In this document: positions 53,544 through 59,245 of the stretch, piece after piece
How positions within the stretch are numbered: position 1 is the first letter of the stretch
Layout of the letters: every line of letters starts with the position of its first letter
NCBI RefSeq assembly: GCF_014384895.1
Contig: NZ_JACRSQ010000001.1
Coordinates: 99,493-163,492 of the forward strand
Direction of reading: 5' to 3'
Length of the DNA: 64,000 bases
DNA from: Bianquea renquensis
GTDB taxonomy: Bacteria; Bacillota; Clostridia; Lachnospirales; Bianqueaceae
The notes under the pieces: generated by a model
Told to the model about the DNA's origin: nothing
What the model saw: only the letters and a program-made list of their open reading frames with translations
Databases searched by the model: none
Made by a program: the position numbers and the translations under genes

Positions 53544-53694
53544 GCGGAGTTATGGGGTGTCCTATGCCCAATTTGTCGCTGCATAGGAAAGATTCATAGA
53601 AGTGTTGTTGCAGCAAAGATAGGATATTGACGATATTCTAAATTTCTGCCTAATGGATACGATGGAAGAAGTGAACTTTTTTGTGTATAGTAGG

Positions 53695-53736
53695 CTTGGC
53701 TGCCGTGGAGGTGCAACTCCCTGGCGGCCTTTTTTG
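53695..53736 (+). terminator. Rho-independent terminator closing the his/aro/rnhA transcription unit
   Basis: GC-rich imperfect hairpin GGCTGCCGTGGAG..CTCCCTGGCGGCC followed by TTTTTT. Confidence 0.5.
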
Positions 53737-54102
53737 ATGTAATAGTCTCGGGAAATTCAATGTGGAGAATGACGGATGCATTTGATGCATAAGCGCGATT
53801 TTATCCATATAATGGTGTATAAAAGTTTGAATTCAATGCGATATTTAGCCAAAATTTCTATACTGTGTCGAAATATGGCATTTTTTTATCCATATATGGC
53901 AGAAAATTGGGTTGTCTGATTACGGTAAAATATAGTAGAATAAGTATATTAATTTTAGAGAGAGATACCGTTGGTAAAGCGATTATTGATTTGGATTGAT
54001 TGTATACATGATTTGGGCTGTGTAATACTTTTTAATCTGTTCTTTCAAACCGATGCGAGTTCAGGTTTTTAAGAAATAAAATAATGTGGAGGTGTACTGT
54101 TT

Positions 54103-54516
54103 ATGAAAAAAATCAAGAAAGTTGTCTCTCTAATGCTGCTGACATTTATTGTGGCCTCTGTGGTGGCGGTTCCGGTCATGGCGGCGACAGATCCGCCCTA
54201 TAGTTATGGGTGGCTAATGCCGGCTGAGTTCAAGGGAAGCGCGCGGTCCACCGCTTTGATGGAAAAAACATCTGCCTATACGACGCCCTATGTCAACCCA
54301 TCAATTAATACCCTTCCGACGGCCTATTATCTGTCTCCGGCACGGCTTAGCACCATCAATGCAACCGATGAAATCACGCTTAACGCGCCAGGCAAGCGGA
54401 ACTTTACATGGAGGTCCGGGTATGGAGGAGTGGGACAATCCTACTGTTTGACGGCATATCCTAATATGAATGGAGATTGGGACGAGTATACGATCCGGGG
54501 AACTTGGAGTCATTGA
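54103..54516 (+). CDS. Small exported protein of unknown function (signal peptide + ~110-aa mature part)
   Basis: MKKIKKVVSLMLLTFIVASVVAVPVMAATDP.. is a Sec signal with an AxA cleavage site. The gene has lower GC than the flanking core genes and follows a 560-bp AT-rich region. Confidence 0.4.
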   Translation: MKKIKKVVSLMLLTFIVASVVAVPVMAATDPPYSYGWLMPAEFKGSARSTALMEKTSAYTTPYVNPSINTLPTAYYLSPARLSTINATDEITLNAPGKRNFTWRSGYGGVGQSYCLTAYPNMNGDWDEYTIRGTWSH

Positions 54517-54625
54517 CGGTGGAGTCTGAGACGGTAGGTTGACTTTTGTGCAGAAGGGGTCCCAATACTCGCTCCGGACTCCTTCTGCGCGATAGATCCT
54601 ATTTTTCAATGGGGGAGGCATTTCC

Positions 54626-55762
54626 ATGGGAAAGTCTAATTTTTATGCGAGAAGAAAGGGGAGCTTGCGGCGAACGGTACTTCTGTGTGGTGCCCTGAGT
54701 TTTCTGTTGACAGCCTGCACAGGCAGAAATCCTTCCCAGGAGGAGCCGCTAGTATTGCCCGACAGCTTGAAATTGACGGCGGAGCTGCCCGGGGAGTATC
54801 CAGATCAGGCCAAAACGTATACGGTGGATTGGCTGGAGGTGGAGGAGGAAACAGCGGTGCAGGCCCTGTTCAAGGGAGAGACAAGAGAGTGGACTCAGTG
54901 GGCGGTGGGAAGGCAATTGCTCTCGGAGGATGAGGAAGTCTGCGAATCCTTATTAATTTATGATGGCGTTGTTGAGGGGGGATTATCGTATTCATATGAT
55001 ACGAAAGACTTTTCACTCGGGGGAGTTGCAAGCTATTACCCGGGATATCCGGACACTATGGAACAGCTAAATGGATATTATGGATATCATGACATGCAGG
55101 ATTATGCGACAGAAGGAGATCTTTCATTTAAAGGGCAATCCGAGGCTTCAGAGGAGATCGAAGAGCTGCTGTACGCCTGCGGATTTCCCCAACTTCAATT
55201 ACAGCAAGCCTATCTGTTGGACGCAAAGACGATGAATGAACATCTGGCCCTATATAACGAGTATAGGACTCAGATTCAAGAGAGTCGAGAGGAGTACGAG
55301 TTTACCCAGGAGGATGAGTGCTATCTGTTCCATCACCGGCAGGTGCTGGACGGGATTCCGTTTGCTAACTTAATCTGGACAAAGGGAACGCGGGATATGT
55401 CTACAGAAACGGTCATGTATTCCCTGTATGGCAAGAATGGTATACTACAGATAGAGGCAAGACAGTTTTATGAAATACAGGAACCGCTTTCAGCGGATGC
55501 GGTCATCAGCCCAGAAGAGGCCGTTGCGGCCTATGTGGAGGAGTACACCAAAGCGCTCCAATTTGAAGAAACGGAGATCTTTGCCGTGGAGCTCAACTAT
55601 ATTGTCATGTATGATGAGGGCGCCATGTATGCCAAGCCCGCCTGGATCCTCTCGTCGAAACGTAAGACGCAGTATGAAGAGGCAACCGTGGATGAATATG
55701 GGGTGACGGCAGTCTCGGCTGTGACGGGGATTCTGATTCAGAACGGGACGGATCTACGGTAA
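54626..55762 (+). CDS. Putative lipoprotein of unknown function
   Basis: Basic N-region then ..LLCGALSFLLTAC.. (lipobox LTAC); acidic mature domain with no recognisable family. Confidence 0.45.
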   Translation: MGKSNFYARRKGSLRRTVLLCGALSFLLTACTGRNPSQEEPLVLPDSLKLTAELPGEYPDQAKTYTVDWLEVEEETAVQALFKGETREWTQWAVGRQLLSEDEEVCESLLIYDGVVEGGLSYSYDTKDFSLGGVASYYPGYPDTMEQLNGYYGYHDMQDYATEGDLSFKGQSEASEEIEELLYACGFPQLQLQQAYLLDAKTMNEHLALYNEYRTQIQESREEYEFTQEDECYLFHHRQVLDGIPFANLIWTKGTRDMSTETVMYSLYGKNGILQIEARQFYEIQEPLSADAVISPEEAVAAYVEEYTKALQFEETEIFAVELNYIVMYDEGAMYAKPAWILSSKRKTQYEEATVDEYGVTAVSAVTGILIQNGTDLR

Positions 55763-57508: not shown

Positions 57509-57526
57509 GAGAAGGGAGAGAGGAAA

Positions 57527-58189
57527 ATGGCAACATACGCGGTGGAGGTCAAAAAGGCAGTGAAGGAGTTTAAGGAGACGAAGGCGCTGGACGATGTTAC
57601 GCTGTCCTTCGAATCGGGGAAAATCCACGGGATCGTCGGGCGGAACGGCTCCGGCAAGACAGTGCTCCTGAAATGTATCTGTGGGTTCATGGAACTGACG
57701 TCGGGACAGATTCTTGTCCAGGGACAGAAGGTGGTCCCCGCCAAACCTCAGAATATTGGGATTATCATAGAAAGCCCAGGATTTATCGGGTCGCAGAGCG
57801 GATTCAAGAACTTGTACCATCTGGCTTCTCTGAATGGAAAGTTGACGCGCCAGGAGGTGGAAGGGGTGATCAAGCTGGTGGGATTGGATCCCCAAAATAA
57901 GAAGCCGGTGCGGAAATACTCCCTTGGGATGCGGCAGAGGCTGGGAATCGCCCAGGCTATCATGGAAGATCCGCCACTGCTGCTTTTGGACGAGCCCATG
58001 AACGGCCTGGACAATCAGGGGGTGGCGGACGTGCGGGTGATTCTGGCCAGACTGCGGGACGAGGGGAAAACCATCATTCTGGCCAGCCATAGCAAGGAGG
58101 ATATCGACATCCTGTGCGATACAGTCTGCGAACTGGACCACGGCCGTCTCATCCACAGGCGGGAGGCGGAGAGTCAAATCGATGCATAA
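57527..58189 (+). CDS. ABC transporter ATP-binding protein (short ABC-2 family ATPase, LanF-like)
   Basis: Walker A GRNGSGKT, a Q-loop, signature SLGMRQR, Walker B LLLLDEP and an H-loop ..ASH.. in 220 aa. Confidence 0.85.
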   Translation: MATYAVEVKKAVKEFKETKALDDVTLSFESGKIHGIVGRNGSGKTVLLKCICGFMELTSGQILVQGQKVVPAKPQNIGIIIESPGFIGSQSGFKNLYHLASLNGKLTRQEVEGVIKLVGLDPQNKKPVRKYSLGMRQRLGIAQAIMEDPPLLLLDEPMNGLDNQGVADVRVILARLRDEGKTIILASHSKEDIDILCDTVCELDHGRLIHRREAESQIDA

Positions 58190-58328
58190 AGTGTCCCCCG
58201 GCGGAATAGGCTACTAACAGAATGCGTAGCCGGACAAAGGCGCAGGGGGATCCAGCATGTGGGATAGAAAACGAAACGTTGGCTTTGGAAGGCTTTCCGG
58301 AACGAAAGAGACCGGAGAGCTTTTTTGT

Positions 58329-58652
58329 CCATGGAAAAATCCGCCGGGAGGCGGATTAAAATGAAGAAGCGAAGATTCTTCCAAAGTTCGCGAAGCGAAC
58401 TTATTTGTCCTATGGAAAAATCCGCCGGGAGGCGGATTAAAACGAAGAAGCGAAGATTCTTCCAAAGTTCGCGAAGCGAACTTTTCTGTCCTATGGAAAA
58501 ATCCGCCGGGAGGCGGATTAAAATGAAGAAGCGAAGATTCTTCCAAAGTTCGCGAAGCGAACTTTTCTGTCCTATGGAAAAATCCGCCGGGAGGCGGATT
58601 AAAACGAAGAAGCGAAGATTCTTCCAAAGTTCGCGAAGCGAACTTTTCTGTC
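58329..58652. repeat. Tandem array of four 81-bp repeat units (two hairpins per unit), in frame with the downstream M23 peptidase ORF
   Basis: Units begin at 58331, 58412, 58493 and 58574 with the unit sequence ATGGAAAAATCCGCCGGGAGGCGGATTAAAA[T/C]GAAGAAGCGAAGATTCTTCCAAAGTTCGCGAAGCGAACTT[A/T]T[T/C]TGTCCT. Each unit contains hairpins AATCCGCC-GGGA-GGCGGATT and AAGTTCGC-GAA-GCGAACTT. The same family occurs at 12929-12982 and 40521-40588. Confidence 0.8.
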
Positions 58653-59245
58653 TTGTCCTGGTCTGTATAGTCTATGGATGCAGCCTGCATCAATATGGAA
58701 AGGCTTACCGTGCCGCCGCGGCGCGGGAAATCCGGGTGACGGATGAGACAAAAGCCATGGGAACCATCTATTCGGCGCTGAAAGAGGAAATCCAGATTTT
58801 CCCGGTGGATGCCAGGCAGACGGAGTATACCTTTGAAGACTCCTGGGGGGCCTCCCGATCCTACGGCGGTGACCGCCAGCATATGGGGACGGATATCATG
58901 GACACGCAGAATAGCAGGGGGCGGCTTCGGGTTCGCTCGATGACGGACGGTGTTGTGACCTGCGTGGGATGGAATCAGCTTGGAGGCTGGCGCGTGGGGA
59001 TCACCTCCGACAGCGGCGTATATTACTATTACGCGCATTTGGCCTCCTACGCCTCGGGGTTGGCTGTGGGAAATGAGGTCAAGGCTGGAGAGTGGATCGG
59101 TATGATGGGGGACTCGGGATACGGGGAAGAGGGAACCACAGGACAGTTCGCTGTTCATCTTCACGTTGGCATTCTGTTGGATGAACAGGGAAAGGGCGAA
59201 GAATGGGTGAATCCCTATCCATTCCTGAAATCACTAATTTCATAG
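58574..59245 (+). CDS. Secreted or membrane-anchored M23 (LytM-domain) metallopeptidase
   Basis: HxxxD (..RQHMGTDIMD..) and HxH (..FAVHLHVGI..) M23 active-site motifs and ..YAHL... The start is uncertain. ATG 58574 (the last repeat unit) gives a basic N-region plus hydrophobic anchor LFCLVLVCIVYGC. The ORF track extends it through all four repeats to 58325 (TTG). No convincing RBS is present at any candidate. Confidence 0.7.
   Translation: MEKSAGRRIKTKKRRFFQSSRSELFCLVLVCIVYGCSLHQYGKAYRAAAAREIRVTDETKAMGTIYSALKEEIQIFPVDARQTEYTFEDSWGASRSYGGDRQHMGTDIMDTQNSRGRLRVRSMTDGVVTCVGWNQLGGWRVGITSDSGVYYYYAHLASYASGLAVGNEVKAGEWIGMMGDSGYGEEGTTGQFAVHLHVGILLDEQGKGEEWVNPYPFLKSLIS

Follow-up and report, generated by a model that had tools for sequence, protein, structure and literature searches.

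What is the function of a small secreted protein, an acidic lipoprotein, an ATP-binding cassette (ABC) exporter and an M23 metallopeptidase when they are encoded next to each other on one strand, and do they act together? This question is raised by positions 53544-59245 of a 64,000-nucleotide stretch of DNA from Bianquea renquensis, a gut bacterium of the class Clostridia (Bianqueaceae; contig NZ_JACRSQ010000001.1; the whole stretch is called the window here). A sequence-only reading had taken the locus for a possible lysin or bacteriocin-plus-immunity module, in which the M23 enzyme was the toxin and the exporter conferred immunity. Judged by gene order here and in other genomes, 53544-59245 is two independent units: a cassette of five genes (Unit A), encoding the small secreted protein (called sec137), the lipoprotein, two permeases and an ATPase, and the M23 peptidase gene (Unit B). 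We think it rather probable that the cassette is an envelope-protection exporter, serving immunity or resistance, which resembles LanI plus LanFEG or CprABC and is independent of the M23 unit.

The independence of the two units was seen from synteny. Metagenome contigs were scanned with the protein of the small alarmone synthetase (SAS), and the best 80 loci were kept; their SAS proteins were 50-57% identical to that of the window, hence they represent distant lineages. Synteny was scored by tblastn (E < 1e-6) on the 66 of these loci, chosen by SAS similarity, that had at least 1 kb of sequence upstream of SAS. Of the 66 distant Clostridia loci, 30 had an M23 homologue (43-57% identity) directly upstream of SAS and in the same orientation, at a distance of 69-411 bp (mode 127 bp), and tblastn detected no lipoprotein, permease or sec137 homologue in these 30. 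The genes rnhA, M23 and SAS were contiguous in locus L022 and nearly contiguous in L062, with one extra gene between rnhA and M23 in L043. Because this order occurs in distant loci without the cassette, rnhA-M23-SAS is taken as ancestral, and the five genes at 54103-58189 are an insertion between rnhA and M23 in the Bianquea lineage. In the other direction, the M23 gene was absent from every other context, at least six of them, in which the core of the cassette (lipoprotein, two permeases and ATPase) was seen. Moreover, the ATPase gene is followed by a strong intrinsic terminator (58287-58326), which sets it off from M23. Due to this synteny in both directions, the part of the earlier proposal that made M23 the toxin is refuted, and so is the pairing of M23 toxin with exporter immunity. 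The sequence-only reading had also counted none of these genes to the neighbourhood of SAS, which was wrong for M23. It had further considered an indel at this site: the cassette is lineage-specific, because it is missing between rnhA and M23 in distant lineages, but the indel is not recent, as shown below. In the window, the M23 gene lies directly upstream of a small alarmone synthetase gene of the RelQ/SAS type (the two together span 58523-60244), and NrdR follows SAS only in Bianquea.

The properties of the M23 protein were also compared with those of known enzymes. In the window protein, a basic N-terminal stretch precedes a hydrophobic anchor, and the motifs HMGTD, YAHL and HLH (HxxxD, HxH) are intact. 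M23 was its sole Pfam domain, and no SH3b or other cell-wall-targeting domain was found. The nearest solved relative was 3NYY ('Putative glycyl-glycine endopeptidase lytM', 8e-47), with which the window domain shares its type and intact catalytic residues, while lysostaphin gave 2.5e-7. In contrast to bacteriocins of the lysostaphin/zoocin A type, the window protein carries a membrane anchor, lacks a targeting domain and is encoded in synteny with SAS, so its assignment to the lysostaphin/zoocin family was not upheld. The known immunity to M23 bacteriolysins is a FemABX-like modification of cross-bridges, not an ABC pump, and no FemABX-like gene was found near the M23 gene among the window open reading frames (ORFs) and their Pfam matches. 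M23 is a predicted housekeeping cell-wall endopeptidase and a conserved upstream neighbour of SAS.

The four-gene core, on the other side, is by its gene content a widespread uncharacterised module of Clostridia. It was found with a divergent PadR gene (loci L015, L017 and L018), behind a two-component system (L102/L103), behind another small secreted protein of 136 amino acids (L099-L101) and behind a sec137 homologue (L104). It was also found on two Clostridium plasmids, whose RefSeq annotation has 'hypothetical' for three of the proteins and no more than 'ATP-binding cassette domain-containing protein' for the ATPase. One of them is the C. tagluense plasmid pCM008-A (178 kb; L106 1366-7525), in which the core stands back-to-back with an annotated MutF/MutE/MutG lantibiotic-immunity transporter. 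The extracytoplasmic component, the lipoprotein, was homologous in all contexts (hhalign probability 96-99.7%), and in all of them it occurred together with the permeases and, wherever the contig extended far enough, with the ATPase. The breadth of the module was estimated from permease 2, for which a HMMER profile search (E <= 1e-3, clustering at 50% identity) collected 1606 clusters; for 340 the E-value was below 1e-30. No relatives were found when the permease-2 profile was run against viral contigs, and thus there is no sign of phage origin. The HMMER search also returned a protein of 581 amino acids (P0177) in which permease 1 and permease 2 are naturally fused in one polypeptide, supporting that the two permeases act as one membrane unit.

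The likeness of the cassette to lantibiotic self-protection systems was then considered. The hallmarks of LanFEG are an E-loop and two distinct membrane subunits (bioRxiv 10.1101/2025.10.09.681468), and the CprABC/LanFEG group has one ATPase and two subunits of six transmembrane (TM) segments, to which a lipoprotein and a two-component system may be added (PMC5786555). The permease-permease-ATPase arrangement described earlier for 55882-58189 was recovered, with about six hydrophobic segments per permease by a crude count taken from alignment-averaged hydropathy only. With one small ATPase, two subunits of about 6 TM and a surface lipoprotein, the cassette is built like LanI plus LanFEG or CprABC (NisI/NisFEG, SpaIFEG), and a two-component system adjoins some module relatives, which is also the case for CprABC and NisFEG. 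In the ATPase, Glu takes the place of the Q-loop Gln (IGIIIE82SPGF); this residue aligned with the Glu in LIESPPL of MutF, and its counterpart in ABCA3 and ABCA4 is Gln. Module ATPases had Glu at this position in eight of nine cases and Asp in the ninth. This E-loop Glu is in common with LanFEG/CprABC, the top NCBIfam family of the ATPase was the lantibiotic-protection ATPase TIGR03740 (181 bits), and identity to the annotated MutF of pCM008-A was 37%. The nearest solved relatives were type V exporters, namely ABCA3, ABCA4 and ABCA1, then NosF (1e-31) and chain 6xjh_C, which was deposited merely as 'ABC transporter ATP-binding protein' (6xjh is presumably PmtCD). NCBIfam matches to DrrA, PmtC and GldA also point to type V exporters.

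The permeases set the cassette apart from these systems. Neither permease 1 nor permease 2 had a match in Pfam, NCBIfam, PHROG or PADLOC, and profiles of both families against PDB sequences gave only noise. The sole ABC-2 match (PF12698) came from a distant permease-1 relative and was non-significant (E = 0.11). The cassette also differs from LanI plus LanFEG in its gene order (lipoprotein, permease, permease, ATPase, which is not the canonical lanFEG order) and in an ATPase score below the family cut-off. Its lipoprotein, with 378 amino acids, strong acidity and a PepSY/YycI-like fold, is different from NisI/SpaI. There are no lantibiotic genes; instead, a gene for a Sec-secreted protein of 110 amino acids lies upstream. 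The window locus has no LanRK-type two-component system; among the relatives, a two-component system adjoins only those of L102/L103. Because the curated models fail for the three transporter subunits and the fold of the lipoprotein differs, LanFEG-like here means an architecture and not family membership. The earlier description as a lantibiotic-type self-protection exporter therefore held for architecture and E-loop but not for the family, as the TIGR03740 score is below its cut-off. The lactococcin 972 system was compared as well, as an analogy of concept only: it likewise has an unmodified small protein with a Sec signal directly upstream of membrane/ABC genes, which could serve to protect the producer. 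However, sec137 had no family match in Pfam or NCBIfam, the ATPase reached 100.4 bits against a TIGR03608 cut-off of 254.85, and the lactococcin 972 system has no lipoprotein whereas the cassette has one. The immunity permease of Lcn972 is a single large protein.

The sequence-only reading had suggested Pfam for identifying the two exported proteins, and no domain was returned for either. Both were as it had described them. The lipoprotein has the lipobox LTAC, whose Cys31 is invariant in 14 homologues, and the mature form has an isoelectric point (pI) of 4.16 and a net charge of -43. Strong acidity was seen in 17 of 19 homologues (net -29 to -50). The family comprised 14 clusters in a word-indexed search, and nothing was found in Pfam (including PepSY), NCBIfam, PHROGs or PADLOC. 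In a structural model of moderate quality, whose N-terminal 130 residues were poorly modelled, the C-terminal half to two-thirds formed tandem PepSY/YycI/cystatin-like alpha+beta domains. The profile matched PDB 5COZ at E = 2e-5; this is EUBREC_2869, an uncharacterised protein of Eubacterium rectale. The C-terminal part thus has its fold in common with 5COZ, PepSY/YycI/YpeB and the propeptide domains of M4/M36, but the lipoprotein has no Pfam PepSY match.

The small protein sec137 is made as a precursor with a signal peptide (VMA/AT), and the mature form has exactly 110 amino acids, a mass of 12.2 kDa and a pI of 6.8, and is rich in aromatic residues. It had no match in Pfam, NCBIfam, PHROG, PADLOC or PDB, and its profile against PDB sequences gave noise. 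In a word-indexed search of 5.8 billion proteins its family had only 6 clusters. Lipoprotein-ABC genes followed every sec137 copy whose downstream genes were seen. Homology to the small secreted protein of L099-L101 was considered and rejected: hhalign aligned the signal peptides only, and global alignment gave z = 1.6. The two proteins have only a C-terminal Y-T-[IL]-x-G-T-W motif in common.

The history of the cassette was followed within the species and in a sister species. Exact-protein look-ups showed an identical arrangement in each of the 24 contigs read for the species, and the cassette proteins were identical in the contigs compared by tblastn, except for one with a shorter permease 2 (95% identity). 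In the sister species, whose PheA and RnhA are 96% and 93% identical to those of the window, the whole cassette together with its upstream region of about 560 bp is tandemly duplicated right after rnhA, and the copies have diverged. Copy 2 is the orthologue of the window cassette, with a synonymous divergence (dS) of 0.25-0.59 against 0.35-0.47 for flanking genes, while copy 1 is an older paralogue (dS 0.9-2 for the lipoprotein and permease genes). As orthologous dS equals that of flanking genes, the cassette occupied this site before the two species diverged, and a recent horizontal acquisition is ruled out. The ratio of nonsynonymous divergence (dN) to dS against the sister species was 0.32 (lipoprotein), 0.34 (permease 1) and 0.17 (both sec137 and permease 2); PheA and RnhA gave 0.06-0.07 at similar dS. 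The exposed parts of the cassette thus evolve three to five times faster at the protein level. Copy 1 carries a degenerate small secreted gene, a pseudogene with ATG changed to ACG, an internal stop and an altered C-terminus (L012 9440-9905, also L009 and L013), and the four genes downstream of it are intact in two samples. Such a decayed sec137 copy beside an intact core would fit an orphan-immunity-like pattern. Downstream of copy 2, at L010 4258-11465, the sister species carries not M23-SAS but an ORF of 69 amino acids, a tyrosine recombinase and a signal-peptidase-like gene, and the same region also holds large CHAP/SpaA/LPXTG pilus-type genes; an element integrated at the site, or a rearrangement there, is the probable explanation.

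The protective function, the ligand and the toxin role of sec137 that we infer for an envelope-protection exporter would be as follows. The surface-tethered lipoprotein would bind an antimicrobial that targets the membrane or envelope, and the heterodimeric, type-V-like ABC exporter, driven by a homodimeric ATPase, would expel it from the membrane. The product of sec137 would be a partner secreted in abundance and might be the cognate toxin, against which the core would give self-immunity. In other lineages, a core paired with PadR or a two-component system would be the inducible resistance version.

Several results weigh against this assignment. No lantibiotic or other bacteriocin biosynthesis gene was found beside the cassette, and the ATPase falls short of the TIGR03740 cut-off of 309.75 bits. 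The permeases gave hhalign probabilities below 1% with the annotated MutE/MutG of pCM008-A, and no NCBIfam or Pfam match appeared at E <= 1-10; likewise, 34 sampled members of the permease-2 family had no Pfam transporter or ABC-2 match, apart from a single spurious match. The lipoprotein fold is PepSY/YycI-like and not NisI/SpaI-like, and the lipoprotein homologues on the Clostridium plasmids are basic (pI 9 on pCM008-A). For its part, sec137 resembles no known toxin, its AlphaFold model, built from 6 sequences, was unusable (pLDDT 37), its near-neutral charge is no obvious match to the acidity of the lipoprotein, and its positional counterpart in L099-L101 has no significant similarity to it. 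Moreover, bacteriocin islands typically vary between strains, whereas this cassette stays constant within the species.

The alternative that survives best, which we nevertheless consider unlikely, takes the core as an inducible pump against exogenous cationic peptides, such as host defensins or the lantibiotics of neighbours, with sec137 as a binding or decoy accessory and not a toxin. The negative charge of nearly all lipoproteins (17 of the 19 homologues) speaks for it, as do the conservation of the cassette within the species, the module that neighbours MutFEG on a plasmid, and the PadR or two-component genes beside cores elsewhere, an arrangement also seen in CprABC-type operons (PMC5786555). 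However, the window cassette has no regulator gene, and the decayed sec137 next to an intact sister core, which shows that sec137 is dispensable, fits a toxin model equally. A toxin role of sec137 could go further. We hold it doubtful, if worth keeping in mind, that sec137 and its positional analogues represent a new class of Sec-secreted protein bacteriocins of about 12 kDa in gut Clostridia, with the lipoprotein-ABC genes as dedicated immunity and the regulator-linked and plasmid modules (>1600 permease clusters) as orphan immunity or resistance copies. The upstream position of sec137, the stem-loop behind it, the fast-diverging neighbours, the duplication, the decayed copy and the regulator-linked cores make a toxin compatible with the data; it is given a low probability because of the near-neutral charge opposite an acidic lipoprotein, the invariance in the species and the lack of likeness to toxins.

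It is improbable that the ABC proteins and the lipoprotein form a machine for mechanotransmission or assembly like FtsEX, LolCDE or NosDFY-NosL, which would work on a partner outside the cytoplasm, for example to mature, release or anchor sec137 or an envelope component, with no antagonism involved. The ATPase does resemble NosF too, PepSY/YycI-like domains typically regulate through protein-protein contacts at the surface of the membrane, and a small secreted protein is co-located in three cassette groups (the Bianquea group, L104 and L099-L101). On the other hand, the permeases lack a large extracytoplasmic domain of the MacB/FtsX type, most modules have no small secreted partner, and the E-loop points to LanF-type pumps. 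Finally, M23 as a secreted lysostaphin/zoocin-type bacteriolytic toxin, with the ABC exporter and the exported proteins as its immunity or export module, is barely tenable: the genes adjoin on one strand, the catalytic motifs are intact and the lipoprotein has a fold similar to that of PepSY domains and protease propeptides, which are able to act as peptidase inhibitors, but the SAS pairing in 30 of 66 cassette-free distant loci, the cores without M23, the intervening terminator, the membrane anchor with no targeting domain, the closeness to 3NYY over lysostaphin and the FemABX type of known bacteriolysin immunity all argue against it. The envelope-protection exporter is therefore kept as the preferred reading of the cassette.

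The features of the locus are collected in Table 1; all six ORFs of the sequence-only reading were recovered at the same positions.

Table 1. Features of the cassette (Unit A) and of the M23 unit (Unit B), in window coordinates.
Feature	Position	Strand	Remarks
Unit A, operon-like cassette	53544-58326	+	between rnhA and M23 gene
AT-rich control region	53544-54102	+	36% GC; composition, promoter scan, repeats, sister-cassette alignment
sec137, small Sec-secreted protein, 137 amino acids	54103-54516	+	
Intercistronic stem-loop, about 17 bp, in the gap between sec137 and lipoprotein genes	54548-54591	+	fold z = -2.5
Acidic lipoprotein, 378 amino acids	54626-55762	+	lipobox LTAC
Structured leader element, about 70 nucleotides	55808-55878	+	directly 5' of ribosome binding site (RBS) and start codon of permease 1
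Permease 1, 256 amino acids, about 6 TM	55882-56652	+	
Permease 2, 287 amino acids, about 6 TM	56645-57508	+	8-nucleotide overlap with the end of permease 1
ABC ATPase, 220 amino acids, LanF-type E-loop	57527-58189	+	PF00005, 3e-30
Intrinsic terminator at cassette end, stem of about 14 bp and TTTTTT	58287-58326	+	region fold z = -5.2
Tandem repeat of 81 bp, 4.1 copies, in frame with M23 gene	58320-58652	+	97% identical
Membrane-anchored M23 metallopeptidase	58523-59245 (maximal ORF from 58325)	+	PF01551, 3e-14

The base composition of the locus was compared with that of the window (mean GC 0.522, standard deviation 0.04, 500-bp minimum 0.376). The sharp drop in GC reported for 53544-54100 was confirmed: the 559-bp intergenic region after rnhA is the lowest-GC stretch of the window. 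A GC content below core level through 55762, as also claimed, was weak, since the sec137 and lipoprotein genes have 50% GC and lie less than one standard deviation from the window mean; only GC at third codon positions is mildly lower (0.54-0.56 versus 0.62-0.74 in neighbours). The permease and ATPase genes are core-like in composition. Two long antisense ORFs on the minus strand, 57155-58177 (340 amino acids) and 58214-59164 (316 amino acids), lie opposite the ATPase and M23 genes. Their translations are of low complexity and without support, and GC-rich coding sequence most likely produces both as artefacts.

The AT-rich control region holds a hairpin terminator (53698-53735), two copies of the direct repeat TTTTATCCATATA (53799-53811 and 53884-53896, 85 bp apart) that overlap the palindrome CCATATATGG, a promoter-like -35/-10 site from the promoter scan (53912-53941), and a fully conserved leader block of about 40 nucleotides (54028-54068) just ahead of the sec137 RBS. 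Aligned against three cassettes of the sister species, the region keeps its terminator, repeats, -35/-10 region and leader block. The TTTTATCCATATA repeats are candidate operators. A canonical PadR operator (ATGT-N8-ACAT) was sought as well, and none was present in the AT-rich region. Behind sec137, the stem of the intercistronic stem-loop (54548-54591) is conserved in four cassettes, and a T-run stands about 10 nucleotides downstream of it. The stem-loop probably acts by terminating part of the transcripts or by stabilising the mRNA, and it suggests a high ratio of sec137 to downstream expression.

The sequence-only reading had placed the exporter under a leader motif. The motif is indeed present before permease 1 (55808-55878), but it is not a conserved component of the cassette. 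Further copies were found before SAS (59360-59431) and before the lipoprotein gene of a related metagenome-assembled genome (L016 2179-2250), and a covariance model detected only these three in the window and 1.1 Mb of loci. The element consists of a stem P1 (GGAGCG.../...CGCTCC), an inner stem and a hairpin (GGCA-GAATT-TGCC), and directly precedes a Shine-Dalgarno sequence with its start codon. An alternative fold could pair the 3' arm of P1 (CUCC) with that Shine-Dalgarno sequence. Identity among the copies is 85-89%, loops included; no Rfam match was obtained, and the element was neither upstream of SAS in about 70 other loci nor in either sister-species cassette. The spacer before permease 1 ranges from an overlap to 126 nucleotides among cassettes, indicating that the element is not a feature of the cassette. 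A known riboswitch was rejected on the lack of an Rfam match, the absence from about 70 other SAS loci and the 85-89% identity that extends to the loops. The element looks like a young, lineage-specific one rather than an ancient riboswitch.

The 81-bp repeat spans the first 250-330 bp or so of the M23 ORF. In each unit, one hairpin (ATCCGCC-GGGA-GGCGGAT) includes the Shine-Dalgarno sequence; the unit also has a start codon with 27 N-terminal codons, encoding MEKSAGRRIK[M/T]KKRRFFQSSRSELFCP, and another hairpin. The units alternate between ATG and ACG, suggesting that a double unit of 162 bp was duplicated. For the M23 start, ATG at 58523 or 58574 is more likely than TTG at 58325. Metagenome assemblies break or carry 100-N gaps at the repeat, and one contig has a single unit, so copy numbers read from them are unreliable. 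Strain-level variation in copy number was thus unsupported, as the single-unit contig may be an assembly collapse. Weak Rfam matches to CsrC in the repeat region were spurious.

Taken as an envelope-protection exporter, the cassette would stand for a large, unannotated family of protective ABC systems in gut Clostridia. It would also extend the LanFEG principle beyond lantibiotic clusters, with different permeases and a different lipoprotein, and sec137 may then be a new protein toxin. The pairing of M23 with SAS, which may be functional, offers a separate lead that would link cell-wall remodelling with (p)ppGpp synthesis and signalling.

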